A DNA stretch of 56,107 bases, the filler included, from Sluysia triapertura (taxonomy: Eukaryota): the NCBI GenBank assembly GCA_046118255.1. It is 4 parts of 4 records of this genome, joined end to end, with 100 filler letters (N's around TTAATTAATTAA, not from the genome) between each part and the next. Parts side by side here need not be neighbours in the genome. Positions count along the whole stretch, not along the records: positions 1 to 16,708 come from JBJNIA010198820.1; 3 more parts are not named here. The stretch is one strand, 5' to 3'. Each line of letters opens with the position of its first letter. Position 1 is the stretch's first letter. The translations under genes were made by a program, and so were the position numbers. The notes beneath the pieces were generated by a model. It did no database searches. It was not told where the DNA came from and saw nothing but the letters and a program-made list of their open reading frames with translations. Positions 1,421-55,931 of this stretch are shown here, piece after piece.

Positions 1421-5653
<4,233 letters not shown>

Positions 5654-7674
5654 TATATTGTGGATCAAAATTACTTTTATTTCATTTATTATGAATTCTT
5701 ATAATTTTGTAATTGTATTAATTATTTTGTGATTCGAATATTTTCTGTGTTATTTTCAGGAAATTTCTTTTCCAGTTTAGAATATTTATTATAGTTGTAA
5801 AATATAAAGTTAAGTTTTAATCTATGAAAGTATAAAGTGCAAATATTGATAAATTAATTTATTTTCTATTATATAAAATAACAAAATTAGGAAATAATGT
5901 GTTACTTTTATTGCTTTGCTATTGCAAAGATTTTAAATTAATTTCAGGAAGTATAATTTGTTAATATGTTTTGCTATAATTGTACCTTTTATTCTTTTTT
6001 ACGAAAAACAAATTAATTTATTACAATTTTTAAATAGAAATTTTATTATATTTCGTGAAAATTTTACCATTTTTGTTATCTTAATGTACTTTTTGGATTA
6101 ACATACTTAATATACAAAATAATAAATATTATTTTTTTAAAAATGAAATATAATTGTGATATAGAGAAAAGATATTTCCTCAATCTTTTATGTTTTTATA
6201 TTCATTGAATAAGTTTTGTCATATATACTTTAAATTTTGTGATTTTTTTCTTTTAGTAGAATGACTTAATAATTTAGAGAACTTGTTATTTTTAAATAAA
6301 TATTTTATAAATAATAATGACAATTTTTGTACAATAAATTTATATTTTAAACATAAAAAAATAACGCTAATAGATAATTTGAAATTGATATATTCAATAA
6401 GCATTGTCATCTGAGTTTATATTTATCTTATGTTCAGATAGGTGAAATTTAGATATTTCTGCCATCGTTGGTCATCAGTCAGTATTGTTATAAGATAAAA
6501 ATTTACTTATAAATTAATAATAAACTATTATATAAATTATTATATTAAATCAAAAATTACTTATAAATTTGTTATAAAATTAAATTATTGAATAGAATAG
6601 TTATTATAAAATGACTACAGAAATTATTAATATTAGAATTTATAGTACGGTAAAATTGGAATTACTGAAATAAATATTAACTATATAATTTATTAATATT
6701 GGAATAATTAGTATGGAATTAAATTTACAGTATAAATTTATTGAAATAAATATTATTGCAAAAGTATATAATCACTAACAAATTGCTTTGTAACACCGCA
6801 ATTATTATCAGGTTTATATTTAAGTTACTGCAAACTTACAGCAATCTTTGAAGATTTGTAACAAATGGATTGAAGAATATTATTAGTTTTCTTGAATTAA
6901 AACTTCTAATTATATTTAATTTAATTGCGAAGAAAGAAAATGCATCAAGAAACTTATTGAATAAATTAATTTAAAATAGTACTCAAAATCACCATTAAAT
7001 TATGTGTGGTAGGCTTAACTTGGTTAAAAGAGTTTTTTTCATATATTTTTGTGGTTAATAAAATTTGTTTCTTAACTAAATCTTTTTATTTCGTTTAAGT
7101 TCAGAAAAGTTTGAAATTGTACATCCTTGAAACTATTCGCACTACCATCTCGAATGTCAGAGGTGATTGAGAATTTAACCTTCAGAATAACCTTGATAAG
7201 TCTAAAGAGTATAATATAAATTTAGAATAAAAAGCAGAGTAAAAGTTAGAGGCAAAACTAAAATAAATCAGAATTACACAAAGTTATAATAAAATATTTA
7301 AAACGGTATAATAAAATCAAAATTATATTTTAAAGTAATTATAAGTTATGAATGTTATTTTTAAATTTTTGAAATTTACTTTAAACTTAAAATTTATAAG
7401 AATAAAATTTACATTAAGTTTGCTATTAAAGAAAATGAAATTAGCTGAATTTACTTTGAATAATTTAAAATTTCCATTTACAAATAAGGAAAGAATAAAA
7501 TTAAATAACATAACTTTATTTTGATTACATGAAATTATAAAATCTATAAAAACTATTGTAAAATATTCTTTTATTTTAAAATTTACATCGAGTTCTGAGC
7601 ATGCCATTGGTACGATAACTTCACGATTTCTTAAGTTAAATTATTAAAGTCAAATAATTGCATATAAATCAATT

Positions 7675-8920
7675 TAAAATTTACTTTTAGTATAAAAATG
7701 TTTGTGGGTGCATAAGTTACAACATGATCTTTTGTTGGAATTGTATTGATTGTAAAGTTTCTGTTTGATTCTTCAAATCTTAATATCTGAGGAGCAGATT
7801 TATACGATTCGTATGTTGAATGTAAATGGAGTTTCCAATTGCCTCATGATAAATTTCTTTGATATGGTAATATCTGCAACTTTGACCAAACTTCAAGCCT
7901 ATTCCTAGCCCATTAGTCTGTGAACTGCACTATGCTGAATGATAATGTGTAACCAAAATTGGATTCGAACTAATAAATGTTGGTCCAGTCACATCTTGTA
8001 TTTGCTTATTTTAATGGATAGTTGCATTAGATTTGTTCTTCTATTTGCCTTTATTTAGCACATCTACTTGCGGTTTGAAAGTTAGAATTTCTTTGAGCAT
8101 CATAGTTACTTTTTCGAATTTAATTTGTTGGCAAACGACTTCAGTGACAAATTCGATTGTGGTCACATTATTTGATGACTGAGATAATGGCATAATTGTA
8201 TCATCGTTTGTCGTTTCATTATAGGAATTAACGTGAATACCACTTCTAAGACTATGGTTTGGACATTAAACTTCGGATCTAATTGGTTTTTATTGCATAA
8301 TGAATTAAATAACTGTCCATCATGCTAAATATTATTTATCGTAAATGATAAATTTCTGTGCAACACGTCAGAAACTAATGTGATACTCTAAACTTTAAAT
8401 TCACTTCATATTCCTCTAAAGGTTTCTGTAAAAACAAGAATATAACATTCAAAAAATTGTTCATTATTTCATCACTAATAATCTTACTAAAAGTATACAT
8501 ATGATTAATCATAACGGATTCAAATTCAGTTTGTCTTATATGAATGGCGTGATCTACATCTAAAATTACATTAATTACTAAATCCGATTGCAACGATGTT
8601 AACATAATTGGTAACGTGAATTTTGATACGGACAATAAAGATTTAAATTTTATTTGTGTTGATGAAGTTAATTCAGAACGACTGCAGTGAGAGTTTCTTT
8701 CTACTTTTTTTGATGATTTGTATAAAATCGTGGGGTAGAACAATCTAACATTAAATTAAGAACATTTAATTTATATAAGTCTAAATGTGAATAGCTTAGT
8801 TTCAACTTGTCTTGTATCACTATGATCTCTACAAGTAATCATAATAATTTTTACATCATACATTTCGTAAGGTATATAATTTATTTCAATTCTGTTCATG
8901 TTATTAAATTCATTAGTCAT
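7675..8920 (-). pseudogene. Decayed intronless ORF of unknown family (~400 codons with several stops and at least one frameshift), probably transposon cargo
   Basis: From the ATG at 8920 it reads MTNEFNNMNRIEINYIPYEMYDVK..., continues in frame through ORF 8375-8743 and beyond with scattered stops, and ends ..KRSCCNLCTHKHFY in another frame. Confidence 0.45.
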
Positions 8921-9048
8921 TGATGATGGTATTTTTTCAATAAATCATTAATAATTGTATAAATGTCACAATAGTGAAGTTGTGTGATATTTGAGTTGTT
9001 GGTTAGAACAATAAAATTTATTATTTATTATGTCTCTAATGTGGATTG

Positions 9049-9066
9049 TGATTGGACGTCCAATCA
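9049..9066. promoter_or_regulatory. Perfect palindrome TGATTGGACGTCCAATCA (two inverted CCAAT boxes) upstream of the 8920 ORF
   Basis: Seen directly; a related motif lies at 24629-24646. Confidence 0.5.
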
Positions 9067-10581
9067 AATCACTTGAATCAAATATTGAAAGAGTGGCATG
9101 TGTACAACAAACAATCAACGTATCAGTTCATCAATGTGCCATGTATTAATTCGATAAGCAACCGTCATCAGTAGACAGTTAAATAACCAACACTTTTAAA
9201 TTTATTTAAAAAGCTGTCACTGATGACAGGCTAGGCTCAGACAGAGCTATTTTAGAGACACAAAGTTGATCTTAATGGTTAAGTAATCAGAAAAGTGAGT
9301 CTCAGGTCACTACAGTATTATGATCTGCTGATATATCTAATTATATCCTCAAATATAAAATTAACATATATAAAATATATAAAATTCAAAATAGTATAAA
9401 TCATAATCACTTGTTACATATTAATCGAATAATTAACTTACAACAAAACTATTTCAAAGCAAACTTATAAAATCAAAACTTAAAATGTGAATTCTTAATC
9501 AAATCAAAAAGAAAATATGAAGTAGAAATGACCTTAGTAAAACTTATTAAACTTTAGCAAGGCACTGGAAGTATCGATAAAATTTAAAATCGAAAATCAG
9601 AACTTATAAACTTAATCATAAACTTAAACTGAAACTATAGTTTATATCAACAATATATATGTCAACATTGAAAAATCTTGTAATATCAGAAAACGCAACC
9701 TTATCAATAAAATCGAAGTAAATCAAAATCAAATTAACGTGACAAAATATATCACATTTCAAAGAAATCGTATAAATCAAAACCTAACTTATAAACCCAT
9801 GCGAACAAAGCATCAATAAAATGAAAAATAATATCTATACTTATCAATCAATGTAAAAAATCTTTAAAAATACTAAATTAAATTTAATCTACTCTTATTA
9901 ATGTTGGGATCCAAATTTCTTATTGTGGTGCTATGTAAATTTAATATTTTAGTAGCGAGTTCGCCTGCAGCATGGGATTTTCTACAGGATTTAAAATACA
10001 TTTTCTTTAGAAGTCAATAAAATTTGCTCCTAAACTTTGTGTTGATTAACGATAATTAACAGCATTAATTAATACTTTTATCATGAAGAAATACATAATA
10101 ATAGATTAAACAAATATAAGGGAGGATGTAAATCTTTTATTTAAAAAATCAATCCTTTTTAAATTTAAATTTGTTTATTTTAATTTGATTTTTAGTCAAC
10201 TCTTTAAAATGCCTATTTACAAAAAATGAAATTATAACAGAGTTTACATAATATTTATGAATTGTGATGATACTTAATATTAATTTAATTAATTAATTAA
10301 TTAATTGAAATTTTTTACTGTAAATGTCTGAATAATTTTAATTGGTAATGTCTGAACATATCTGATTAGTTTTGTTTGAAAATGTCTTTTGTATTCAAAT
10401 TTCAGAGAATAATTCATGGTATCTTTCTTTTGTATGTTCTACAGATTTCTCATATATTTGTTTGTTTTCGGTATTTGCTGCTTGAACATTTTAGCATATT
10501 TTATATTTTTGCTCTGTGGCACCAAAATTATCAAAATAAATTTTTTCACTTCTAGGCCTATAGCCTATTTTTATATTTTAT

Positions 10582-10816: not shown

Positions 10817-11480
10817 ATGACAGCCACATATTGTCTTTGGATTCTTATGATTGAAATCCGCATAGTTTATCTGAGTTTATTAATCAGTATCAGATAAGTT
10901 CCAAAATTTACGGCTGGAATGAAGCCAAACAATGTGAAATATTCCTATTGTATTTACGAGGAAGATCTTTGGGTGTCTATCTCAATATTTCGGAAGAAAA
11001 AAGTGTGGAATGAACTGATCTAATTAAGAAATTCGAAAATCAATTAATTACTAAAGATACACAATCTACTAATGGTGAATTGGTTGTACAACAATTTTTG
11101 GATGTATGCAAGGAGCCAATTCGATCAGACTTGTTAATTTCTGATGCTACGAATTAAGAAAATATTCAATTATAAGCCACAATTATGGAATCTAGATTAT
11201 CCATTATTCTATATAAGGCTAGTTTTATGGTTTCTGATATTGAACCAGTAGAACATCTACTTCAGAATCCTGTAATACTTATATACCTAAAAACAACTTT
11301 CATATGGACATCGAAGAAGATCTAAGAAAATTTAATAATCAATTTATTTAATAATGAAAATAATCATCGTAGTAATAGACCCAATAATTCTGGGCAAATT
11401 GTTCAATTTCAGAACGTCATTATATGTTATTATTGCAATAACATTATTACTCAAAAAAACTAATTCGGCTAACAGTCAAA
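10817..11480 (+). pseudogene. Decayed Ty3/gypsy-like gag
   Basis: LDSYD*NPHSLSEFINQYQISSKIYGWNEAKQCEIFLLYLRGRSLGVYLNISEE matches the retrotransposon gag pattern (F..F...A...GW...K....L...L.G.A...Y). A CYYCN zinc-knuckle start occurs at ~11425. Confidence 0.7.
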
Positions 11481-11929
11481 ATGATCAGAAACCAATACAT
11501 ATCGTGTAGATATATAGACTATAAATGAAGAAAATAGTTAAAGTGACAGAAAATTAATGATGAGGAGAAAGAGGATGAAGCTGCTGAAGAAATGTTCAGT
11601 AAATTATTCATGATAACGGAGGCTGATGAACATACTGAAGAAAATGAGAATATCGATATAAACTACTTATTAATAATGGACGAATCAATAATAAAAGAAG
11701 TAGCTATAATTTTAGACATGTATACGCATTAAGTAATAATTTATATTTTACTTTATAATAAATATAGATATTTTAAATAAAAAACAGAATATTTAAAATA
11801 TAAATAAAATATTAAAAAACAAAACATTTACATAAATTCACAAATGTGAAAATCACATAAATATTTATTTCTAACACAAAGGACTAGTCATAAAATGAGA
11901 TGTATGATAATTCTGTATGTGGACTAAGA

Positions 11930-12012: not shown

Positions 12013-12104
12013 ATGAAGCATAATCTCTTAAAAAGAAAATAAAATTGTTAAAAGGGTAAAGAGTTTGTTTTGAAGTGAATCGGACTTTATTATTAAAGCA
12101 AATT

Positions 12105-12540
12105 TTAATATTAATAACTATTTTATTAGGATTATCATTAGTTCAGTCAATAAGAGCAAATGATTGCAAAAACGCTACTTTGGAGAAATATTTTCACTGA
12201 GGGATGTTGAAGAATGCCCTGAGGTCTACCCAAATAAGTTCATTAACCATATGTATCACGTTTATCAAGGAAGGGGACTAATTTATACTCAAGCTAAAAT
12301 GTGTTCCGTTACAAGAAAAATATCTATTAGGTGGTATGGGAATTATAATCACACTTCAATAATTAAACAACCTCATTTAGAAGAATACTTAGAAATTACA
12401 CCCACTAATTGTTATTCAGCTTTTCAAACTTAGAAAATTAAAATAGATACACAAATTAAACTAAAAGCAAAAGTTGGTGTAATATTTGTTGGAGATTTAT
12501 TTAACGATAGTGCTTGTGACTATGGAGAATGTTGGTGTGG
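12105..12540 (+). pseudogene. Truncated, decayed chuvirus-like / class III fusion envelope glycoprotein (env)
   Basis: Hydrophobic leader LLGLSLVQSIRANDCKNAT, then a frameshift, then GEIFSLRDVEECPEV..QAKMCSVTRKISIRWYGNYNHTSII..YLEITPTNCYSAFQT*..VIFVGDLFNDSACDYG. This follows the YDC / SL.DV..C / C..(R)....CG...H.S / C...H.TG / G.....G.C.G pattern I recall for chuviral and Anakin glycoproteins. Confidence 0.7.
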
Positions 12541-12833
12541 TGTTACACCCCACTATATCACATACATCTCATCCACTACCATCATCAACCACATAAACCT
12601 CATCACAAACAAAAACCATATTAAAAATAAATTCATTCACAATATCTGCATTATCACACCTTTTTTCCCTGGCAAATCATAGACGCATAATAAAATCTTT
12701 TTTTATTAATATTTTCTTATACGTAACGCTTGTTGCCACCTCATCATCACTACAACACTACCCTTTTTATTGTATTTATTATTGCAATTTTTAAAGCTTT
12801 GAATTTCCTATTTACTTCCTTTTACTAATAAAT

Positions 12834-13317
12834 TTGAATGTGCTTAATCCAGATTTGAAACAGATGAATTTAACGGAATCTAACTTTAAGTCAATTGATA
12901 ACACAGGAAAAGTAGTAATGGATCAGGATATTGTTACTCGAATTGATGAGTTAAGAAAAGAAGTCGGTGGACTTATCGATGAAATAATTGCTAAAGAAAA
13001 TAAATTATTAGAATCAACATTGCAAGGTAAAAATGCGATTAGTTTACCGATATCGTCTGATATTAATTATCATCACAAATTTGTATTACCACCACAAGAA
13101 GCAGCTTATAGATTAAGTATTGAAACTCATGTTATTTAATAATTCAAAAAAACATCATAATCAAACTTTATTTATATCACGTTCTTATCAAATTCAATCA
13201 AAATGTAACAATTCAGCTACCGCTCCATCATCAACAATGAACAATTTTCAAATTCGTAAATCATATACTTCTACTGAAAGTAACAGCAGTGACAATGATT
13301 TTCAGTACAACCGTTAG
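12834..13317 (+). pseudogene. Frameshifted coiled-coil ORF of unknown function (ORFs 12834-13139 + 13120-13317)
   Basis: Heptad-like IVTRIDELRKEVGGLIDEIIAKENKLLES; the overlapping ORFs suggest a frameshift. Confidence 0.4.
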
Positions 13318-14256
13318 AACTTAATACTATTTTCAAGGATATCAACGACAGCTCTTCGGATGTTATAGTGAATAATGAATCGCTCAATAATCATAAAATA
13401 TGTAATTATGCAAAAATGTTTGATACAGACACAAGTGTTGACTTTAAACGAATTTAGTATCAGTGAATAGATAACATTAAAATATTTTTATAATAAAAAA
13501 CTAATATTAATTTGCTCAAAATATTGTGTTTTCAGATTTAAATAAAATTTTGTTTAAACATTACGTTATTATTTTAAATGTTTAATTCTGACTTCATGGA
13601 TTATAGCACAAACATATTTTAAATTTATGAAATTGTTGTCGATTTTATCCAAGTCATATTTCGTTATATGTAATTGGTTATGCATAAGTTAACATACTAT
13701 TTTTAGATCAATGTTATATTGAAAACGTGTTACAGCATGTTAAATTCATCATATGTAACCTGAAATCAAATCGAATAAATTTAATGAAGCAATTAATGAA
13801 GGATTTAGAGAGATAATAAGATAAGTGATTTGTTATATATTTTTATGTATCACACTGTACAACTTTAAAAGCACTACATAAATTGATGTATTCGTATTCT
13901 ATTTCACAAATGTTGTTTTTGGAAATTAGCTATAGTACAGGAAGATTTGGAATTAACAAGACAGCAGTATGAAAATAAAATGAAAGAAATATCTAAGCAC
14001 ATTTGATATTAATGTATTTGTTGCATTAATGTATTTTATCTCATTTCGAATTTTGTTACTCAAAATTAAATATTCTACAAAATATTAATTAACAATCTAT
14101 ATATTTTCCTATTTTGTATTAAAATTTTGTTTTAGTTGCGAGAAATTTTTGAATTTGACATTGTCAATAATTCGAATTGACTTGTTATACGTATGGTAAA
14201 AATTGTTTTATAAATCTTCAAAACAAGGAAAAGTAATCATATACACTAAAAAAAAT

Positions 14257-15610
14257 ATGAAATCCAACTTCATACAACTATCATCGATTCCAAGTGTGGA
14301 AACTATAAAATTTTCTGACGATGAAGACTAGCATCGACGAGCTCCTTACAGTCCTTCGATTTTTCTCGACGATGATGTAACAATTAACAATCGGAACGAT
14401 AAAGTTGACAATACAACGTTAGAAGACTATTTTTCAAGTAGTTTATCATCTCAAAAAGAAGATATTTTAAAAGTAGACCTATCATGTTTTACAGACAACA
14501 ATGTGATACGAAGAATAAGTGAAAGCTATTTGAAGCAATCACCAGATTTGATTTATCTTAGAGAAAGCATTGATGTTTTAAAACATACTGAATTTGAATC
14601 TTGTAATTTTCTTGGCTCCCATTTAAGAAGACTTTATCCATTTGAAATGTCATTTCAAAAAAAGACAAGAGTCGATAGTGACTGTTATCGAGCTGCTGTT
14701 GAACTGGTGGATCGATGTTTATATAAAGAAGGTATACAGAACATGAAAACCTGTAACAAGACCACTGTCATGCGTTTGTTTACTGATGCTAAATTAACTC
14801 AAAAAGAAAATATTACTGTTGATTCAATCCAACGAATAGTTGGAAATAGATATGAAAGTAAAGAGATGTAGTGAAAGCACTCTACAGTATTATGTTGCTA
14901 CCAACACTTGACCAATATTTTCGTTACTTTTTATTATTAGATAAACCGAATAATTGTAAACAAATTTAAAGGATACCGCCATGTCTTGTAACAGTTTAGC
15001 TGGTTATCCTTATTCATTTATTAACGATGATATGTATTGTTTAACTTATTATATTATTAGACTTTTTGAAATTAGTTTTATTGACGTATTCCTTAAAATT
15101 AGTCATATTAGTAAACATTTTATTATTAGTTACACCAGTCCATGTATTCTTGCAAGATGTATTAGTGGAGCCATATCATTATTTGAATTTGATGTACCAG
15201 TTGAAAAAGACACCTTCGATCTTATTAATTCAAAGTGTGACGAAGGCGAAAGCGGTGACTCATATCCTGGTGTTAATTTGCACACAAAGAAACGTTTTAT
15301 ATGTAAGGTTTTTGCTTTTAGTAATATACCGTTTAATCTATTAAAAACGACTGTGGATGTATTGAAATTACGTTTTAATAAAATCCTGTTAATGAGTTAT
15401 CATTTTTATCGCCCTCATCAATTTAACATAAATATTATGGTGTGGAACAATTATGTGGAACTTTATAAGTAATACAAATTTTCTAAGTTAAAAAATAATG
15501 TTCGTAACGTAAGTAAAAACGCCGTACAAATAAAATTTAATACGACCACTATAAAATTAAATCAAACAACTACACAGGGATTTAAAAAAGAATACGATTT
15601 TATTGAATAA
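14257..15610 (+). pseudogene. Intronless, decayed cyclin-like gene (A/B-type cyclin fold)
   Basis: Cyclin-box pattern CYRAAVELVDRCLYKE..VMRLFTDAKLTQKENITVDSIQRIVGNRYESKEM. After a frameshift at ~14868: VVKALYSIMLLPTLDQYFRYF. Then Cyclin_C-like LFEISFIDV..YTSPCILA and terminal YK*YKFSKL..NVS. Several stops and 2 frameshifts. Confidence 0.7.
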
Positions 15611-16708
15611 AGAAGTTACGAAATTTTGAATTTTGTTAAAATTTGTAAAATTAATTTTAAAATAAGTGCTATTTCTCTTTCCATTGTACATTAATAATTT
15701 AGTAAATATTTATTTATTAATTATCTATTACTAAATTTTAATTAAGTAAAATAAATGATACAAAACTGCAGTTATATGTTATAAGAAACGAGTTAGGAAG
15801 ATATGGACCTGAAAAATGCAGAAAGAATTAATACATTAAGATGGACAAAACATAATCAAATATTGTTAGATTAAAAATGATGAATGTGAAAACATCTTCA
15901 ATGATTTTGACAACTGAAGAATATCTATAAGTTCCAAAGACCCTTGTAAAGTGTTAAAATCATTGAAGAAGTCTGAGATGGCTTGCGAAAAATTTGAAAA
16001 CACTAAAGAACCACGGAATTTGTGAACCCTAAACCATATGAGATCTCATCAAACTTCAGGAATATTTCAAATCTTCATACGTGCTTAAGACCTTTGAATA
16101 ACTTTGTAAAGTGTTTGAGGTTATTTATATGTTTGTGAAATGAAAGTCATATATAATAGTTAACATGGAGAAGTAGAAAATGAAGATGAAAATAAGTGCT
16201 GAAGCTGAAAGCATCTTGAACCTTAACAGAACTCAACAATAAAATAAGATTAAGTCTAAAAATAGATTAATTAATGAAAATTTTAATTAACTTAATTAAG
16301 GAAAAATATGTTTTATAAATAATATTGACTTCACTTGTTGAAGAAGAATCGAAAATGCTAAATATGATAAAGTTAAAAATTGTTGTAAAATTAAAGTGTT
16401 CATTTTATTTCATTACTTTTGTTTTATAGTAGAAGCATCCGTCTTGAGTTTTAAAAATAACATTGTCTATTATCACTGCATCATTAATTTATTCATCATC
16501 TATACTAGTATACTATGGCGTATAAACATTTTATCAATTTACATCTATCATTATTATTTCTGTTTGATCTCGAATAAAGATACCACAAGATTGTCACTCA
16601 TCTCCATTTTATCTTTGATTTCATGATTTGTATTATATGACATATTTTATTTCAGTAGTTACTGTAATTCTTTCAAATACCTTACTATCTCTAATATGCA
16701 TTATAATC

Positions 16709-18260: not shown

Positions 18261-18948
18261 AAATATTCGTGTGCTATTTTTGTTTCATTATGAAAAACAT
18301 TTATTTAAAATAATTTGTTGCCCTAAATAATCTATTACAGGATATTTAAAGATCACTAAGTAATGGAATTTAAATTTCCAGTACAATGATTACCACCTTG
18401 ATGAAACAGATTTGAGCTACTTTAATAAATTAATTATTAAAATCATCCTCTATGAGTCATAAATAATTTTGTTCATAATGGGATTTCTTTACCATTATGT
18501 AATAGGTTTTAGGATACTTAATGTGAAAAACGTTGTAAAATATTTTAAGACTTACGAGGTTTAAATTGAGAATTATGTTGTTATGAACTTACCTTTTGTT
18601 ATAAAGTTAAGTATAATGAGTTCGGTCATCATAAATAAAAAGTAATTTGTAATTTGATAATACGTACTGTAAATGTTTGTTTAAACCAAGAATATACATG
18701 AATATTTAATTTAAAATTCAATATTTTAATAAACAAAACTATATAGTCTATTTGATATCTTAATTGATATTTTGTATGAAATTATTTAATGATGTTTGTT
18801 TAAGTATGTTATTATTATTATTATTATTTTCTAAATGATGTTCTAAGTGATTCCTTGAAGATTAACAAGTGTTACTTAAAAATAAAATCTATAGAGCATT
18901 TGCTTTTTTGCTGAATAAACCGAATTTTTCGTTTTCTTCTATCATTTA

Positions 18949-19107
18949 TGTTAGACTTCGTAAAATGGACTGACCGGAGATCGAACCCGGGACCATCGTC
19001 TGCGCAGTCGATGCTCTACCACTGAGTTATCAGCCCCGTCTAACAATTTCAGATTTTAATATATTCAATTATACTATTTGGCACTTTTTAGGCCTTTTAT
19101 CCTAACA
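18949..19107 (-). mobile_element. Short element with TGTTAG..CTAACA termini containing a tRNA-like Pol III unit (18966-19036)
   Basis: Minus strand shows acceptor stem GGGCTGA/TCAGTCC, A-box TAACTCAGTGGTAGAGC, T-arm CCGGG-TTCGATC-TCCGG, then TTTT. Flanks are CATTTA / CATTAA. Confidence 0.8.
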
Positions 19108-20081: not shown

Positions 20082-21389
20082 ATATGTATGATTAGAAAAA
20101 TTTATGCCTAGATAAAGAGGTGCAAAGAAATGATTTCGCCATTTTTTCTTCATTCTAATAAATATTAATTATTAAGGCCACGTCTTAGATGATATTAGTC
20201 ATTAAAAATTTAATCGCTGAGTGCATATTAAAAGTTTATGCATTAGTTACTTTTGCAAATGGTAAATTCAGAATTTCTTATCCAATCAGAATCTAAATTG
20301 ATTGCATACAGTCGACGCAATTAATTTATACAAGCTATCAACTAAGCTAAGTAACCAATGCATGTTTGAACCTAAATTTTTTCTGCCTTCCGTTATTTTT
20401 TTCTGGTGGTAAAATTATTCATTTTATTAAAAGCTTTCAATTCGCTAAGATGGTAAAAAGGTTTAAAATGCTTTGGTGCCTAATTTTTAATTGCATAATT
20501 TCAAGTAAAAAAGTAGTATATTAATTAGTGCATTTAGAAAAATCATTTTGTTACTTTTAATAAATATTAAATGTCAAATGAACCTACTCCAGTGCTACAG
20601 TCAATTCCAAGTAGCTCTCTGAAATGGAGGGATTACTTAGCATTATTGAGGGTCGGCATATTATCGAACATTTGATGACGAATATATTACGCACTCACTA
20701 GAGAGTCTTAATAAATGTAAATTTTTAATTTTAGTTTATTTTTAGATTTAGAAAATTTGCTTGGATCGTTCACAATTGTTACAGAAGTTCAAAAATACTG
20801 TCTGAAAGAAATAATAATTTGTGTAACATTTATTTCAAAATATATTTCGTTTGAAAAAATTTTTATTTTGGCATGAGTTTTGGGATAAAATATTTTTATT
20901 ATTTCCGTAAAATCATTTTAAATAAAACTTTTATTCATTGTACATAAACATTTAAAAAGTCAAAACTTATAAGGCAATAAAAGCATAAACATTGCATGAA
21001 CTAAATATTAATATTAATAGTGTGACTAAAGAACCAAAAAGAATTATACGTAATAGAGTACGTCCAGATTAAGAACACAATAAGAATTTAGGATGATACA
21101 CATTTAATGACACATGTGTAGGTCCATACAAACGTTTTAGTAACATGAGTGCAAGTAATCATAAAATTTATCGTGCCACAGGTTTAGAAGTCAAAAATTT
21201 TTAAAATACACAAGTAAGTAATCAGAAAAGCTATAAAAATAAATCAACTTGTTGTGATTGCCCATCTGTAGATTAGGAGATGAGTAAGAAACATATAAAA
21301 TCATAAAATAAAGAAAAAACTGACACAAAGTGATGGATTGAACATGGTAAACATTGTTGGAATAAGAATCATGAAAGTAAAACATCTAT

Positions 21390-21880
21390 AATAATGTTAA
21401 AAGAATACCTTGGAGTTCCAAAGAGCTATGTAAAGGTTTGAGACCCTATGGAAGCTTGAGATGGACTTGAGGAATTGGTAGAAACATTAAGGTACCTTTG
21501 AACTTTAGAACTTTTGAATCAGTGAAGACCTTAGTAACATTTAAGCATTCTTGGAATATCGATAAGCATTTGGAATCCTTTAGTAACCTTATAAAATGTA
21601 TAAAATCTTTAAAATGCTTGAGAAATAAAAACTTTTGTTCAAATTAATAAGGATAAGTTTAACCTAGCAATAATTAACATGAGGAAGTAGAAAAAGGAAT
21701 CAGAGAAGTGAAGGTGAAAACATCTAGAGCCTCCTGAATAAACTACTAAAAAACTTTAGAACCTCATTAAAACCTTTAAACATAGAATAAGATTAAGTTT
21801 AAAAATAGATTAATTAGTTAAAAATCATAATTAACTTAAGTAAGAAAAAGTACATTTTTGTGAATAACTTTTGAATGCAG
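21390..21880 (+). repeat. Dispersed repeat block homologous to 15870-16330
   Basis: Shared TTAACATG(GA/AG)GAAGTAGAAAA and AATAAGATTAAGTYTAAAAATAGATTAATTA...AATTAACTTAA. Confidence 0.75.
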
Positions 21881-22604
21881 AAGGCTATGTTAAATTTGAA
21901 ATTGTGTATGTATTTGTTTTGAAAAGACCTTTCGATGAAGGTATGGTTTGAAAAGCCTTAATATTGAGCAAAGTTAAATTTTAATTAATTTTTAATTATG
22001 AAATGTTGAATTTTTATACTTAGAGTGATGCAAATGGATTATGAGATGATTGCTATGAAAGAGGAAAATCCATAAGTGAACTCGAAATGTTTGTAATATG
22101 GTTCGTTTTAGAATAAGAACCTTAAAACATTTTTCATTAGAAAATTGGGTGTGAAAAATAGAAAATCAATTAAATCCTAAAAAGTGAAATTAAATTGATT
22201 ATTTTTATGTATATTAATAATATTGTTGATTGTTATTTTAATGTGAGAATTAATTTAAGTAAAAATAGATTGAGTAGAGTAAAATATAATGATGGTTGAT
22301 AATAAATCAGATTTATATGTTTTCTACACAATAAAGTTTGACAGACCGTACGATGTAGTTGTCAAGGTTGTTATTGTCGGTCTGATCCTCAAAGAGGTTT
22401 GGATGATTTGTGCGAGAGAATGTTTGGTTGTGAGAATGTGAATTGAATGGATGATGAGAGAGTATAAAATAAAGATTTCTAAATTTTTTACACACAATAA
22501 CAAAATAACAACCATAACAATTATGATGATAGATATGAAGATCCATGCTTAGGGTAAAGTTCTTAATTTGAATAATTTTAATATTGTCATTTTTAGTTAA
22601 TTTT

Positions 22605-22910
22605 AAAGCTATTTTTAAGGTGAGTTGATAAGAAACTACCTTCGCAATTTTTGTTAAAAACTATTTTTAAGATAATTAATTGAGAAACATTTTACGTAAT
22701 TTTTGTTGAAGATTATATTTAAATCATATTTGATTTTCCGCTATTTTTAAGGTGGATTGATAAGAGACTCCCTATGTAATTTTTGTTAAGACTATATTTG
22801 ATTTTTAGTTATTTTTAAGGTAATTAATTGAGAAACAGTTTGCGTAATTTTTGTTGAAGATTATATTTAAATCATATTTGATTTTCAGTTATTTTTAAGG
22901 TGAATTGAAT
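22605..22910. repeat. Imperfect minisatellite (units starting GCTATTTTTAAGGT, about 55-75 bp)
   Basis: Five TATTTTTAAG(G/A)T..TTGA..GA..C....CGTAATTTTTGTT units. Confidence 0.85.
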
Positions 22911-23538
22911 ACAAACTCACTGTCCAATTTATTCTATCAAAATATTAAGTATTTTGTCTCTAGAAATTACCATTAAGTTTTTCTGTAAAGTTATTACCAA
23001 ATAATTTTATTGTTTTCATAATCACTCTTGTTACATTGACCAAAAATATTTAAATAACATAATTTCTATTAATTTTTTAGATATTGATATTGTTAGTGTC
23101 TGTTGCGTCACTCCTGGTTGTCTTGTCTTAATTAGATTGTAATATCTTGGATCATATTATAAACGCTATTGTTATTTTTTTATTTTAGTACTCAGTATTT
23201 GGTAAAAATTCTTATTGATAATAAATAATATTACTTTGGTAATGTTAATTTTGACTGAAGGTTTAGGTTTAAGTTTAATTGTTGTTTTAAGAAATTTTCT
23301 AAGTTTAGAAAAGGATTATTCTTTAATTTATTTAATAGGTAGTTCAAATTATCTTTGACAATTAATTCACAATTTGAAATGACTTTATGAAATACATTAA
23401 ACAATATATAAAATAATTGACTATAAAATATTTATTATAAAATTGACGATTAATACTTATAATATATAAACTTTTACTTCTGCATAAATCCCTTAGAGTA
23501 TAATCTGTTCCGTTATCTAAAAAAATTTAGAAAAATGA

Positions 23539-24549
23539 TCAATAATTTAATATTATATTAAATATTACTTTATTGGATTTTACATTAAGAGCATTGATTG
23601 AGACTTGTCGAGCCACGGAGTTTATACTTTCATAACGTTTAATATTTTGGCTGTCACTCATAGTATCTACATATTTACATCCATTGCCATACTTTAAGCA
23701 AACCCTTGATTCGTTTGAAGAAGAAGGACAAAAGGAGGTGTAACTGTATTGATGAGAAAAGATATCAATTTTGTAATTTTTTGTGAACAATTAATTTACA
23801 TTTATGTAAGTGACATAGAATGGTTGGATAATTTTAAAATATTTATTCTCTCTACTTAAAAAAACTTGATCAGAGTACTTGTCTTTGGTATGATCTAGGA
23901 TCGAACTATTAAACACTATTTTATGTTTAAATAAATTATTAAAATAAATTTTGTTATAAAACTTTAAATAATAATTAATTGGTAGTCTAACTAAAGTTTT
24001 ATCATGATCTTGTTTATGTTCTAAGTAACTCACTGATAGTTTCGTTACGTCTTTATGATAAGCTTGATAGTATACGTAGCGGCTCCTAGGTAGTTTGACC
24101 AGACCTTTGTCATCATCTCGTTCATATGTTAAGTGACACATTAGTAGTTGAATTATATTTTTATGATCGGTCTGATAATGTACATAACGATTCGTAAATA
24201 GTTCGATGGACTCATTCTCATCATCTTGGTTATTCACTAAATAACTCAAAATTAGTTTAATTACATATTTACGATTGTGATGATTAAGTCCTAAATGGTT
24301 TAACAGTAGTTTAATTATATCTTTACGATGAACTTGATCAAGTACTAAATAGTTCGAAGATAATTTATTTACATCATAATGATTATCTTTATGAAGTACT
24401 AAATAATTCAAAGACAATTTATTTACAACATCACGATTATCTTTAACATGATTGTCATAGTTATAGCATTCAATATCAAAGTGATTGACTTTAAATTCAT
24501 CATCGTGGATACAATAGTTAGAGTCATATAGCATTTTGAAACCAGTCAA
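23539..24549 (-). pseudogene. Repeat-protein ORF (~336 codons, one in-frame stop) with about nine 18-aa repeats
   Basis: ORFs 23791-24549 and 23539-23790 are contiguous and in the same frame. Repeats include HKDNHYDVNKLSSNYLVL, DQVHRKDIIKLLLNHLGL and YQAYHKDVTKLSVSYLEH. Confidence 0.6.
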
Positions 24550-24628
24550 CTTTATTTTTATAAATTCTTTTTTGAGAAGTTAAGAAAAAATTTTTGTGAG
24601 TATTAAAATTGTGATCAATATTGTGTTC

Positions 24629-30290: not shown

Positions 30291-32048
30291 CAATAAATTT
30301 CTAATTGGGTAATCAATGTTTTATAATACAAAACATGTCTCATTTTGGAATAATAGTTGTTCGTAGGGGTTTCATTATATACTATATAATATACAAATAT
30401 AGTATAATATATACATCTGGTTCTACCTTTATTTTATTAAAAAGCCTTCGAAATTCATAACTTTACGTTGTAATTTCATTCTTGTTTTTGTATTATATTC
30501 AACTGAATAATACATTATTATTAAATCATTCAGTGGGAGTTTAATTATTGAATAGGGCAGTAAAATCCTTCAAAGTCCCAGCCCTAATTTACATATATGA
30601 ATAAATAGTTGTATTGTTACATAACACTTCATTTCCTTGATTGAATTCATATATTCACTCTATTGGTTGATAACTAAATATTATCATTGAAGAATTCAAC
30701 TTAAATTGAATTATATTTAAATTCTGACTAAATAACAGAGTGAACCAATATACATTGTAGTCCAAGATCTATTTTACTTCACTTCGTACATTATTTTAAA
30801 TAATTAAAAAGTTAACGATACCGATTATTCGTCATAGATATATTATAATTAATATGGAACCAATCAATTACCTATAAGTCATTTCAGTAAAATAAATCAA
30901 AATCCCGCAGGACTACCTTCTTTAAGAATGTCAGATACTTATTATAGGCTAATCTAGCATCACATAAATATATTTTTCGACAATAATAATAATAGATTTA
31001 ATAACTATAAATTAATCATATATAAACAATTCATTATATGTATAAACAAAATGAAAATATTAAACAAGTAACACTATTACGTTTTAAATTTTTTTAAAAG
31101 AAAATAACAAGTTTTTATAAACTTTTTCTTAGATTATGTTTTTAAGACATTTACAATAACAAAGAATAGGGGGTTTAAAATAATAAAATTTATAAATAAA
31201 TAAATAAATGATGCGTAACTATTAAAAGTGATTTAAATATTAAAATAAGTGTTATTAATTTTATTAAATTTTAGTGTTAAACAATATAACCAATAATATT
31301 AATTAATATTAACCCTTTAATGCTATTTCAGCCATTTTAATTAATCACTGATTAGTGTGAGTTTTCAATTTCCACAATTTATTCAGTCAATCCCGTGAAT
31401 AATTATTTTTTATTACAATTATTACTATTATTATCATCAATTTCTATTTAAACACGAATAGACTTTTATGGTATAGTTACTTACAGCTTAAAAGGTATAT
31501 GGAAGATCTATTATTACAAAATTTAAAATTTTGAGTTTTTATAAGGTGAAGTTTAATGTGAAATTTGAGGAGTCTTAATATGATTGTAAGGTAATATGAT
31601 TCAAAAAAGGTAACATAAAGTCGCATACCCCCCAGAAAGACCAAAATATTGAAGAATTTGACATTGTGGAAGTTCTGCCTCATCGAGCCGATGCAGTACT
31701 TTATGAAAGGTTGAAGATTTGAATCATTCGATGAAGATTTTTCGATTCAAAACCGAAGGAGTGGTACTTTAACAAAATCCGAAAGCTTGTATATCGATGA
31801 GACTGGCAGTCTTTATTTTGAATTTCCACAAATATTCAACTTTTCGATAATGATCATTAATAAATAGGTGTTTCATAAATATTCAATATGGCGATATCCA
31901 TTTAGTGATACATTATATAGAAATAAGTAATATTCTAATTTATTAAAATAAGTGGACGAAAATACTTTCAATTATGCAGCAATTTCTTAATGATGGGATG
32001 TAGGTCTAAGGTACCACTTGGTATAGTTGACTATTCTAATATAAAAAT

Positions 32049-32080
32049 TGTTAGACAGGGCTCTTAGCTCAGTGGATAGA
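32049..32080 (+). mobile_element. Fragment of the tRNA-like element (5' half with A-box)
   Basis: TGTTAGACAGGGCTCTTAGCTCAGTGGATAGA. Confidence 0.55.
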
Positions 32081-38072: not shown

Positions 38073-38889
38073 TGTTCCAAATACACTATTACTTGAATAC
38101 TGTGAAGCCAATAAGACGATAAACTTTTTAAAGAAATGCAATTTGTGTTTAATCTTATATACTTGGTGAAAGTCACCTTTATTCAGAATTTAAATTATTT
38201 GATTTAAACAAGATATTTAATTTTATAGAATAATTTATATGTAAATATTAATTTAATCGCAAATATAAGGATATAAATAATTTACATAAATTATTTAAAC
38301 TATATTAATTTGGTTAATTTGGCATAAATAATTTTGAAAATTACATTATTAAACTACATTAATTCTAGTAAATTCCAGACACGACATTTTATTATTTAAA
38401 CTTTAAATTTGTTATTGATTAATTAACTAATAAACCTTGGATACATAAACTTTAGACTTGACATTTTAATTTGCGAAGTAATTTAAGTAGAAGAAAAATT
38501 AATGTTTGATCATTAATCTGACTTAATGAAATTTGACAGGTCGAACCACGTAACTATCAAGGGTGTTATTGTTGGTTTAATTCTCAAAGGAAGTTATAAT
38601 GATTTATGCAATGTTTGATTGTAAAACTCAAGAATGATTGGATAATAAGAAAGTATAAAAGGGAATACTTACAAAATTTAAGTCACAAAGAAAATTTACA
38701 TAGAATATACAAGTCAATGTTCAACGCATTATATTATTATTATTTTTATTAATAAAATTTTTTTATTATTTTATTTTATGCGATTAATTGCAAATAAAAT
38801 TTAATTTTTGGGAAAAATTAAATTTAAGTTTTTGAGAAAATTAAGTTAATTTTTTATTAAGATTATATTAATTTGATTTTCGTGAGATT

Positions 38890-41000
38890 TGTCTATATCT
38901 ACATATACATATCACATCAATCATAATATTCATCGACACAAACCTCATTATAAACAATTACATTATAACAAGTCTCATCTATGTCATGCACAACATTACA
39001 ACACTCATCCTTATAAAATCGCAAATGCCTAATAAAATCGTTTTTGCCAATACTTTTCATCAAAATAAAACACAACGCATTGTCACCTTGCCATCATTAA
39101 GATACAATATCTTTTTATCTGCATGTCACAATCTTTTATTTTATATTTTCATATATTTTAAATTTTTTAATAATTTTTTTCTGGCAAAAATTAATGCAAC
39201 ATATATAAAGAAAAGCCTAAGGCTATTGGAATTGCTACAAAAATGAACTACATGGCTTTGGATTTTAAAACTAAAGATTCATATAAATGTACTAGTTTTA
39301 CTAACTCACATTTTAAATATAGTTTCATAAGTGAACGAAAATTTATTTTATATGAAATAATAGTTTCTTTTGTTGTAATTTTACATTTTTTATTTATCAA
39401 TATATTTTATTATATTTCTTTTTAACAAGTAAGAAAAAATTGTATTAATCGTTTTATATGCCAAAAAAATTAAACAATGTTGAACTTGAAAAAATTCGAA
39501 GGGAGAAGGAAAGAATTCAAAGAGAAATTGATGAAGCAGCTAGATTAAAAGAGATGAAAAAACCAAGATTATGTAAAGTTTATACGAAATTGTTTTAATA
39601 TTAGAAAATTTTAAAAAATAAACAAAAGTTTTTATATTTTAAATGCGCGATTTTGAACAAGGTTTCAGTAGTTAGATGGATTAGGAAATGGTGAATCTTA
39701 TGAAAGAATCTTTAATGATCAATTTAATGTTAATTGGAAAAACAAATCCTGCTACTAAACCGGAATTTAATTGTAGATTGCGTACAGCGCTAAATTTTAG
39801 TCAAACTCAATTAACAGTTAATGCTTTAATAACACAACAAAATGCTCTATTTTTAATTCACTCAATATTATCTGAAGCTACAGAAACAAATGATGCTTGG
39901 ATCACCAAACACCGACGCTTGTTTGTAAAATTACACAATTTTATCCGAGAAACTTTGTCTGAACGTCTGGTGGTTCGAGTTGATTCGGGTCAGCTATCAA
40001 GGAAGAAGTAATCGAGACACTGGAGTTGGCGGACTTTTTGTACTCGAATAACATTGTGCTAAGTAAAAAGGAATATAATCTTCGTGTTGCGGAGAACTCT
40101 GGTATTAATCCTGCGTTTTTAAAATTAATGATTTCTGTAGTTTTAATACAAGACCTAGTGAAGGTATGCATAATGATTTTGAATCAATTGACCAGAGTGA
40201 AAGTTTGAAATTAATCATACATAATGTACCAAATAATAATGTTTCTATTCTAAAAAGAGATTCAGACTGCAAAATTTTTGAAGTTGATCAACTGCATAAA
40301 ACTGTTTATTTAAGTTTTGTAATTAACTTACTAAAAACTCACATTATTCATACGATGCATCGTTATTATGATAATTTTTGGATAATTTACTTTGGATATC
40401 TTACTTGGATAATTTTTTTCACAATTTAGCTATCGAGCTCAACATTTTAAATAATTTTAAAAATAAGGAAACTAATGAAGTCGATACTCATATTGCAGAT
40501 GAATACCTCCACAAAAAATTAAATATTGCTGAGATTTATTACAACCACGTTATTGCTCATCCTGAATACAATATTATTTTTGTTTTTATGTTTTATCCTG
40601 TTGATGCGATTGTCTATTTCGAACTTAACATTTTAAATGATTTTAAAAATAAAAAGACGAATAAAGTCAATCTGTATAAAGTAAATGAACGTATTCATGA
40701 AAGCCAATATAGCGTCTTAAATTATTTTAAAATCCACTATAATTGTATCACAGTTTATTTTGTGTATGATATTTTTCTTGATTCTAAATCTTAATGCGGA
40801 ATTTATACCATTCGAGACGAGTGCGTACAACGATCCGAATTTGGGTAGAGCCATTGCTTGTAATAAATGTAAGTATTATATGATTAGACTGATTTGTTTT
40901 ATACATGTGTCATCAATTATTGTTAAAGTTGTCCTTGTTGCGCCATTATATTTAATAATAATGTCGATTACTCTATTTAATAAAACCTCAATAATTAATC
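38890..41000 (+). mobile_element. Relative of the 12541 element: CA-rich leader followed by a chain of broken ORFs
   Basis: AAACCTCAT.A.AAACAA, TAATAAAATC.TTTT and AACGC.T(G)T..CACCT occur in the same order and similar spacing as at 12595-12745. They are followed by coiled-coil VELEKIRREKERIQREIDEAARLKE (~39480) and overlapping ORFs 39688-41005. Confidence 0.5.

Positions 41001-47657: not shown

Positions 47658-47706
<49 letters not shown>
47658..47706. repeat. (ATT)n microsatellite abutting the tRNA-like element
   Basis: Seen directly. Confidence 0.97.
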
Positions 47707-47707
<1 letters not shown>

Positions 47708-47876
47708 GTTAGACTTCATAAAATGGACTGACCGGGAATATAACCCGGCACCTCTCGTTTCACATCTGTGCAGTTCGATGATCTGACCACTGATCTATCA
47801 GTCCCGTCTAACGATTTTAATTTTATTATAGTCAATTATACTATCATTATAGCACTTTATAATACTTTATCGTACA
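47707..47876 (-). mobile_element. Second full-length copy of the tRNA-like TG..CA element
   Basis: Aligns end to end with 18949-19107 (TGTTAGACTTC.TAAAATGGACTGACCGG ... CCCGTCTAAC ... CAATTATACTAT ... GCACTTT ... TTTATC..ACA). Confidence 0.85.
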
Positions 47877-49340: not shown

Positions 49341-52300
49341 TTGGTCATATAAAAGTCTTAATTTAAATGCGTTAACTAAGGTTAAATAAAGATAATTATT
49401 CTCTTATTTGTCAATGGTTAGATAAAGTAAAAGTGATAATATCTTTTTCTAATTTAAATTATAATCTGTTAATTATCTCTGTACGTCATATATATATATA
49501 TGGATAAACAATTTAAGAGTATTATTTTAATAATAATAATCTTTTAATTTTTTATTTAAAAAATATGTTACTGACCTAATAAAATGATTTTTCGTATGTT
49601 TTATAGATTCAATCTTAAATATTGCAAAAAACTTATGTAAATTAAAGTAAAGATGCAATAAACAAAGATCTAGATTCTTCGTAATTTCAGTTGAATATTC
49701 TCCTCGAAGAATTGATTATGCTGCACTCAACGTTTTTTGCGAAGACGTATTAAAGATTTAAAAAATGTTATAAATTTTTTTGTATGAAAGTCTATTAAAA
49801 CCTTTGCTTTATATATTAAAAATATGACCTTGAAGGTCAAAATTTAAATAGAGATAAATATTCATATAATTGTTTTATTTGCATTTCTAAAATATAATTT
49901 ATTATTCTTTACATTACAATTTAAAACAATATAATTTGTCACTTAATTAATTTTAATCCATCAAAACAATTACATAAAATAATTAAATATTTGTATTAAT
50001 TCAATTTTCTTAGAATCGGACATTAGGACGTATTTAATCTTTAATTTTAAATTACGAAATTAATTAAAATAACTGATTTTTACGTTATCTCCGTTGACGT
50101 GCTTCGTAACACTTCATTACTAAAACCAATAATAAAACTCAACATATATACTAAATTTGATATCATTATATCATGAACCAACATTTTTTATTAAGTTAAT
50201 TAACAAGTGTACTTTAACACTTCGACAAACAAAACCTTATAAAAGGTTATTTTTTGTATCTCTCATTGTCTTATCTTGATTCGAGTATCTCATATCAATA
50301 TATCATATCGAGTGTATCATTACAATTCATCATGATACCCTATCTCAATTCCTCAATATCGTTTACCTTATCTGTTATCCTGAATCTTGAACCTTTATAT
50401 CTACCTTTGCCTCTCACTAATTCCAACATTAATAATAATTTATTTATAATTATTTTTGGGAAGTTTTTAATTTAAAAGAATAATTTAATAATTTAATATT
50501 ATATTGTTATGAAGATTTATTGTTAATTGCAAAATACATTGAATTTTAGTTGTGTAATTATAATATTTGTATTGTAATTATTTGTAATATAATTAAGTTT
50601 GAATTTTGTTCTGATTTATAAAGTCAGGAATTTAATCTAGAATAAATTTTATTAGACTAAAAGATTAAAACTGTTAAAGATGCAACGCGAGTTTAACTTT
50701 GGACGAGTTTATAAACGTTCTTTATTTTACAACATGTTATGTAATCTTCTTATCGAGATGATCATGTCAACAAGAAATTTAGGCTATCACTCACTTTCAT
50801 TTTAGGTTTTATTACAATTTATTTAAAAAACAAAAGAATACACTAATAAAATTATTAATTCTAAACACTATTTTTGACTAACAAAGCAAAATAAATTATG
50901 AATATATAAATGAGTAAAAATTTTTATTTTTATTTTTATGTTTTATATTTAAAAAATTTTCAAAAAATTGTAACATTTATAAATATTATTAAAATTACTA
51001 AAAATTATTATTATTATTATTATTCTTTAACAATTTTTTTATTAAAAATTTAATTACAATTTAAATACAATTTAATTACAAAAAATTAATTTTGTTCTAA
51101 TTAAATAAATTTATTAATATGGCTTCTAATAGCCAATACAGTATAAAAACACACAAAGAAAATCAGTCAATACACAGTTTCTATTTACTAGTATAGACGC
51201 CACTGTTATTAGTACGCCATTTTAAATTATACACCTTTGTTAAAATTCGTCATTGCATCATCTACAATTTAATTCAATCATCGACAGTAAAACCATCAAT
51301 TTAATATCTCAACATCTGATCCTTTTTGTGAGACTGGCAATTCTCAAGTTCGTATTTCATTCAACGGCATTATATCCCGAGTCTACGATTAGAGGGATAA
51401 AATTTTCCATTATCAAACAGTCAATTTATTTGAGAAAAAGGACAATCTGAGAACACGAATATTCTTTATTAATTAATTCTTAAGTTTCTTTTACATAGTT
51501 TGCAAACTCAAATTGAGTTAAAATCTATACTCAAAATACTAAGTTTACGGTTGGTCCTTAAGGCCGATCACAAAATCAATCTAAAATATAAATTCATTGC
51601 TCTTTAGTTGGCCCTTAAGGTCAATTATGAAATCATTATTATAAGGTAGAGTCTCTCGGCTAGACCTTTATTATAATTCAATTTTTATCATTATTATAAT
51701 TTTATTATTTATAAATTTTTGTTATTATTATTCTATTTTAATTTTATTTATTAAATTTCCTTTTTTGTTTGTTGTATAATAAATCTTAGATTGTGTTGAA
51801 TATTCGTTCATTATAATTTTAATATTGAATTTATAACATAAGTTTAGTTTACTTCTGTATACTGCAAACAATTTTAAATTAAATAAACGATTATTTAAGA
51901 AGCATTCTAATTATAGTGCAACCTTGCTAATTTCTTAGAACGATTCCAAAAAATTTAACGGTTAATATAACAAGACTTAATAAAGAGTTAAAGATAAAAG
52001 AGTAATACATTTCTCTACGAATATTGTTAACTTTATTTTTCATATAAACTTAAATATTACACATGTTAACGTTGGTCGTAATTATTTTTTAGTCATTTAG
52101 TATCAGACGATTTTGCTCACTATTGTTAAGTTAAAGCAAATAGTATTTTTATACGATTAATATTAATAATTGTTTTTACGTAATTTTACAGGTACGCCAT
52201 TAGTAAGTCGTATACTGTAGACAGACTCTGAATAATAATAAATTATTTTGCTGTAAGTTAGGTTTTTGTATTAAGAAAACCCCCCAGCAAATATAATACA

Positions 52301-55300: not shown

Positions 55301-55501
55301 TGGAATAGAAAGAGGGTTCTGAACGAATAATATTGCCAAATCTTGAGTGCAACTTGAATTTTACTGCGATAAGTTACCAAAAACCAGATATTGTAAGAAA
55401 AAACAGCGACAGCAAAAAATAAGATAGCGCCTAAAATTGTAAAAATTCAAAATGGTGATTCTCATTAAATTGATGCTAGTTTATGTACTAATCTATGAAA
55501 T

Positions 55502-55625
55502 GTTCTAGAACATTCTAGAAATTTCTGTTCTATTTTTAGAAGCAAATGTTCTTTTTTCGAAAAATTTTTAAAGTGACTTAAAGGATTTTTACGTGATTTG
55601 AGAAGCTTATGATGAAAACCTAACA
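55502..55625. mobile_element. HSE-bearing dispersed repeat, copy 3
   Basis: gTTCt aGAAc aTTCt aGAAa tTTCt; ends TATGATGAAAACCTAACA. Confidence 0.7.
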
Positions 55626-55931
55626 ATATGTAGGGTTCTTATTCTCAAAATATCATTCTATAAATATTTCAAAGTCATTTCTAGATTCTTCTTTTTCATA
55701 GCAATCATCATATTTTCATTATCTTTTCACCATTCTAATATGAAAAATGCAACATTCTATAATTGAGAATTAATTAAATTTGACTGCTCAATATTAAAGT
55801 TTTCCTTGCATGAAATTAATCAAGCCAGATCTTCATCGAACAATCTTTTTAAAACACACATAGCTGCAACTTTCACAAAAATGCACTGTTCTTAATTAAG
55901 ATTTTAATTAATTAATTTATTTGGGGCATTA

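Follow-up and report, generated by a model that had tools for sequence, protein, structure and literature searches.

A decayed cyclin-like gene between LTR-like repeat ends in Sluysia triapertura, a candidate cargo of an LTR retrotransposon

Gammaherpesviruses are known for cyclin capture. Gene capture by LTR elements is also known, and that of a cyclin has been described in fish epsilonretroviruses (PMC4299795, PMC3185748). The rv-cyclin encoded by orf a of the walleye viruses WDSV and WEHV shows less than 20% identity to metazoan cyclins (PMC3185748, PMC4299795) and acts on transcription through CDK8 (PMC3185748), its tested partner; these vertebrate viruses are intact and infectious and carry the cyclin as a sense gene. 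The planarian Burro elements (PMC6431247) are giant Ty3/gypsy retrotransposons of 30-kb size from a dugesiid host, provided with pol, tandem repeats, host-derived regulatory cargo and, after gag, an envelope gene related to mononegavirus fusion proteins, which forms part of a giant polyprotein, in frame with gag before it and pol behind it. The listed cargo includes BIR, BCL2, MATH, ankyrin, SUMO-like, midasin and dUTPase, mostly contained in a 4,873-aa polyprotein, and the word cyclin is absent from the review (PMC6431247). In plants, PMC11963269 describes for Retand elements ~3 kb of ORFs in antisense orientation, lying behind the coding core and before the 3' LTR, as well as non-autonomous derivatives, the cargo being TRP28. 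The Anakin elements of mosquitoes, which belong to BEL/Pao, are linked to a chuvirus-type glycoprotein, and the abstract of the paper contains no cyclin (PMC7642597). A literature search that covered sources other than Repbase and Grohme et al. 2018 with its supplements, both possibly relevant, yielded no invertebrate LTR retrotransposon with a cyclin, and the consulted part of PMC8532177 held nothing on cyclin-type cargo in LTR retrotransposons.

The locus described here shares with the walleye viruses an intron-free, very divergent cyclin box that seems to lie inside an LTR-bounded element, the likeness being one of layout alone; unlike the viral gene it is dead, belongs to a very AT-rich animal genome, is probably antisense and stands without pol. 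With Burro it may have in common the host-derived regulatory cargo, the tandem repeats and the envelope related to viral fusion proteins, which here follows a gag-like remnant; no pol was found. Retand, likened by layout alone too, differs in its plant lineage and in its cargo. The link between an LTR element and a chuvirus-type glycoprotein recalls Anakin, the superfamily at the present locus being not assignable without pol.

The cyclin-like open reading frame

The window, that is the whole stretch of DNA analysed (56,107 nucleotides, filler included, GC 23.7%), contains on the + strand a decayed ORF of 451 codons, from an ATG at 14257 to a stop at 15608-15610. It is devoid of introns and runs through three frames (14257-14868, 14862-14966 and 14960-15607), which change near 14865 and 14963. 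This agrees with the sequence-only reading, which had proposed an intronless decayed ORF of ~450 codons with two frameshifts. The features needed here are the three pieces and a neighbouring host gene.

3014-5277, + strand: host NDR/tricornered kinase gene, 291 codons, four GT-AG introns (1096, 43, 197 and 53 bp)
14257-14868, + strand: piece 1 of the cyclin-like ORF, interrupted by a premature stop at 14329-14331, with an acidic/Ser-rich N-terminus and most of the candidate N-terminal cyclin box
14862-14966, + strand: piece 2, in another frame, covering the last part of helix 5 and the PT...F..F motif
14960-15610, + strand: piece 3, coding-like, presumed to hold the C-terminal cyclin box and the tail, with a premature stop at 15470-15472

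The breaks, including the two premature stops, are those seen in the assembly. The coding origin of the ORF is indicated by its stop-free runs of 179 and 170 codons, a length reached by 0/1000 dinucleotide shuffles (longest 141), and by the GC content, which in each of the three pieces declines over the codon positions from 1 to 3. The ATG stands in an A-rich context and an AATAAA overlaps the last stop; no poly(A) tract was found after the ORF, where the longest A run was 4. Two stops in 449 codons correspond to ~3% neutral change, a rough value since it derives from two events, and the distance from known cyclins therefore predates the decay. Short introns as the source of the frame changes were ruled out by GC content, because GC amounts to 30-34% in the four GT-AG candidates of fitting length found at the breaks, versus 10-14% in the three shorter introns of the host kinase. 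A non-standard genetic code is not needed, as the kinase reads through under the standard code. The same kinase was at most 68% identical to its relatives, which come from many animal groups, among the best 120 of 260 matches; this suggests a divergent, under-sampled animal and speaks neither for nor against a planarian host. In a search of sequencing-run indices one run contained 0.52 of the query words, and no RNA run was listed.

On the basis of sequence comparison it is very probable that the ORF encoded a cyclin box. Cyclin_N was the top Pfam family on piece 1 (16.3-17.7 bits, E 0.003-0.008), but remained below the cut-off of 23; the match covered profile positions 34/39-111 of 127, extended up to the first break and was the only Cyclin_N match among the 63 window peptides scanned. 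A cyclin A/B profile was built from cyclins collected by means of a motif; of 130 loci, the 43 whose open cyclin frame was of sufficient length were kept. In an ungapped scan of six frames (~112,000 positions), three consecutive cyclin segments, whose limits were picked after an alignment had been seen, were found at 14677, 14773 and 14868 with ranks 1, 2 and 1, the last of these, in piece 2, being first of 112,090 positions. The segments are colinear: the first spacing is 32 codons versus 31 expected, and the second, which crosses the frame change, is about six codons short, piece 2 itself being ~six codons shorter than the profile expects. Piece 2 was also placed by HH-align on the expected next profile columns (P=0.019). 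Glocal alignment of the N-terminal box gave z=2.8-5.2 over three gap settings and two shuffle kinds, and with the stiff gap setting the score was reached by 0/300 shuffles. The motifs from helix 3 to helix 5 and the PT motif are present in order and spacing. In a frameshift-aware scan of the window the cyclin region came first under one background (18.9 vs 16.9 bits) and third under the other.

Several comparisons gave no signal. The ORF as a whole yielded nothing significant with HMMER, HH-align or folding: our cyclin A/B profile scored -2.7 bits locally on the X-joined read-through, HH-align reached 18.2 against 15.1 +/- 2.3 for shuffles (maximum 21.9), and the single-sequence model had low confidence (mean pLDDT 37), two fold searches returning no informative match. 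Pairwise comparison with 43 cyclins gave z above 3 in none (0/43). An off-frame stretch in the ORF region also ranked first for the helix-1 segment, which implies that the segment ranks are inflated by local composition. Relatives of piece 1 were found neither in a word-indexed protein search, which covered longer proteins only, nor in PDB sequences, the Atlas or viral and metagenome contigs. A phmmer search over 1.84 billion representatives returned one match, a 13-fold repeat protein with 18 residues matched, which was rejected as spurious. Two viral contigs, L006 and L008, were observed to hold a CDK-like kinase and a cyclin box in one open frame; the kinase comes first in L006, whose cyclin domains were confirmed by Pfam, and the cyclin comes first in L008.

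All the cyclin landmarks named in the sequence-only reading were found in the order claimed. Its cyclin call stands for the N-terminal box, where the support is weak, and not for the C-terminal landmarks, which score no higher than chance: the C-terminal box gave z about 0-1, piece 3 matched no cyclin family in Pfam, FEISFID, Y.SPCILA and K.K..K were recognised by eye only, and the terminal K.K..K...VS, though present, lies beyond the second premature stop.

A Lys and a Glu form the CDK contact of cyclins. Both columns are invariant in the cyclin profile A1; in the ORF the Lys is aligned, and the helix-5 Glu column falls in a frame break. The MRAIL...W helix 1 of cyclins A/B/E has no in-frame match upstream of helix 3; it is invariant in profile A1, but that set was selected on this very motif. 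The CDK-contact Lys being kept and the substrate-docking motif of helix 1 being absent, a deregulated partner fits better than a normal A/B cyclin.

The flanking repeat and the viral-type remnants

The ORF is enclosed by fragments of a repeat which recurs in the window.

12553-12757: repeat block C, an LTR-like repeat end terminated by ACA, cut on the left by the envelope remnant
12758-12768, - strand: run resembling a polypurine tract, followed directly by TGT on the - strand
12864-13460, + strand: second decayed ORF, ~200 codons, with stop-free runs 12795-13136 and 13117-13314
15777-16373: repeat block A, the other LTR-like repeat end, starting with TGT, truncated on the right shortly before an assembly gap
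21267-22930: second repeat copy, block A then block B, with tandem repeats
38458-39119: third repeat copy, block B then directly block C
54650-55922, - strand: fourth repeat copy, inverted and interrupted, with the end of A and part of B

With respect to local shuffles, block C (12553-12770) matched 38893-39119 with 65% identity and z=14, and block A (15782-16373) matched 21274-21906 with 62-70% identity and z=43. The downstream block that had been said to recur at 21390 is therefore real, and so is the leader said to recur at 38890, which, however, is located 1.5 kb upstream of the ORF and not beside it. Five fragments of the repeat occur in 56 kb. Since A runs into B, and B into C, elsewhere in the window, the three blocks are parts of one non-coding repeat of ~2 kb. 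A coding nature of the blocks was rejected, as they were without codon periodicity and had no meaningful Pfam match. The repeat starts with TGT and ends with ACA, its ends being mutually inverted at 6 of 9 bases at the cyclin locus and 7 of 9 in the other copies. From these features we infer that it is an LTR.

At the cyclin locus an interval of 3,019 bp (12758-15776) is bounded by a C end and an A end, both pointing inward, and contains the cyclin-like ORF and the second decayed ORF; the latter had no Pfam match. Both the TG...CA-type inverted termini and a polypurine tract are present. Tract-like sites number six in 112 kb (both strands), by a rule set after the site had been seen, and the corresponding tract is weaker at the other copy of block C. 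Inspection beside either repeat terminus revealed no TGG-type primer-binding site, and no target-site duplication was seen at this locus, where both outer repeat ends are lost. The two LTR pieces are opposite repeat ends without overlap, hence they are not comparable as a pair. Neither a profile from 65 loci for reverse transcriptase and RNase H nor tblastn with 156 ORFs from 67 loci gave anything significant in the window, and no second cyclin copy was found in its 56 kb. The regions behind the two copies of block C showed no homology, the DNA at 13400-14260 having no match near the 38890 copy (z=-0.1). Decayed ORF remnants at 39685-40794 (+ strand) adjoin the other C copy from behind, and their orientation towards the repeat matches that of the cyclin; they are unrelated to the cyclin-like ORF and possibly represent a different cargo of the same repeat family.

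Other repeats and frames of the window include a tRNA-like short repeat at 18940-19077, 47698-47844 and 32008-32080, probably a SINE; an inverted pair of another repeat at 50017-50429 and 53357-53796, 63-76% identical; and, on the - strand, a 262-codon open frame at 23791-24579 with a 54-bp tandem unit and no informative Pfam match.

Upstream of the cyclin locus two remnants of viral type were found.

10822-11520, + strand: gag-like remnant with a capsid- and knuckle-like pattern, recognised by eye
12050-12552, + strand: envelope-like remnant, broken and truncated, corresponding to the first part of a fusion glycoprotein of the Monjiviricetes (chuvirus) type

The envelope remnant, overlooked in the earlier reading, lies directly to the left of block C. 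It was identified by PF24664 (28.4 bits, cut-off 27, E=5.5e-7) and by comparison with the envelope ORF of the retrotransposon locus L147, with a pairwise score of 93 that was reached by 0/300 shuffles; a signal-peptide-like stretch was recognised by eye, and sequence searches yielded no close relative. In L147 a reverse transcriptase is followed by the chuvirus-type envelope ORF. The gag-like remnant found no support in Pfam or PDB, and 0/5 gag comparisons were significant. It is more decayed than the cyclin-like ORF (9 stops in 208 codons vs 2 in 449, p=0.001), whereas the envelope, with 1 stop in 129 codons, is similar to it. Farther upstream, a decayed ORF of ~500 codons without informative Pfam match occupies about 7600-9300 on the - strand, antisense to the gag-like remnant.

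Repeat ends with TGT/ACA termini and an adjoining envelope remnant favour a mobile origin. To this extent the proposed capture by a mobile element is supported, while the idea of a family carrying it is met by one cyclin copy and by an unrelated flank at the other copy of block C. Since block C stands between envelope and cyclin, the envelope and gag-like remnants are more likely to belong to a neighbour than to the cyclin element.

Origin of the cyclin-like gene and its possible meaning

The reading that best accounts for these data, to which we assign a probability of about 50%, is that of a dead, intron-free gene for a highly diverged cyclin, carried as accessory cargo of an LTR retrotransposon. 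During reverse transcription the retrotransposon would have captured a host cyclin mRNA that was already spliced, and the cyclin would then have diverged for a long time under the element's own selection. The ORF is free of introns, against four in the 291 codons of the neighbouring kinase gene. The polypurine tract would place the element on the - strand, so that both ORFs of the interval, the cyclin and the second one, would run antisense to it beside the 3' LTR, where the cyclin may have been kept as a separate small transcription unit. The copy at this locus would be a deleted non-autonomous derivative that lost gag-pol. The protein may have bound a host CDK to hold the cell in a phase suited to reverse transcription and integration; by analogy with the walleye rv-cyclin, an alternative role would be the tuning of transcription via CDK8.

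It is unlikely, albeit with appreciable weight, that the ORF is a retrocopy or an intron-free paralogue of a fast-evolving host cyclin on whose two sides LTR fragments landed independently. The repeat is common enough for this, with its five fragments in 56 kb, the host is divergent, as judged from the identity of at most 68% of the kinase among the matches listed, and the cyclin is a single copy without primer-binding site. Yet no poly(A) tract is found behind the ORF, the flanks are complementary, inward-facing ends, one with a purine tract, and the kinase is near 65% identical to other animals, while the cyclin-like protein lacks the helix-1 motif.

Improbable is a single envelope-bearing element on the + strand, with gag and envelope ordered as in Burro, in which the cyclin would serve as an accessory gene in sense orientation close to the 3' end, likened to walleye orf a, and from which a large deletion would have removed most of the envelope and all of pol. 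The gag-like and envelope-like remnants, the second ORF and the cyclin-like ORF are indeed all on the + strand within 5 kb, envelope and cyclin are decayed to a similar degree (1 stop in 129 codons, 2 in 449), and a mononegavirus-like envelope lies between gag and pol in Burro elements (PMC6431247). A simple deletion is nevertheless insufficient, as block C separates the envelope from the cyclin; moreover, block A lacks a purine tract in front of it on the + strand, no 5' LTR occurs upstream of the gag-like remnant (z=1.7), and this remnant is more decayed and without statistical support. The least probable reading, a helical accessory protein of unknown family with a chance likeness to the cyclin box, would agree with a Cyclin_N score below cut-off nearly equalled by DUF7874 on the same stretch (16.5 vs 17.7 bits), with negative local profile tests and with a helix 1 and C-terminal box devoid of support, but it is opposed by three segments that keep the expected order and spacing on both sides of a frame change and by an N-terminal box score that no shuffle reached (0/300, stiff gap setting).

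Returning to the retrotransposon cargo, the feature is real, and it is probably a so far undescribed form of the host-gene capture known from LTR elements. In its present state the evidence amounts to one dead copy with weak homology. A family of envelope-associated invertebrate LTR retrotransposons which keeps a captured cyclin as an accessory gene, and would steer host CDKs by it, is a possibility with the odds somewhat against it. If such a cargo family exists, a genomic parasite would manipulate the host cell cycle from inside; the 'tinkerer' idea of giant retroelements would gain a testable cell-cycle arm, and the walleye rv-cyclin would have a counterpart beyond the vertebrate retroviruses.
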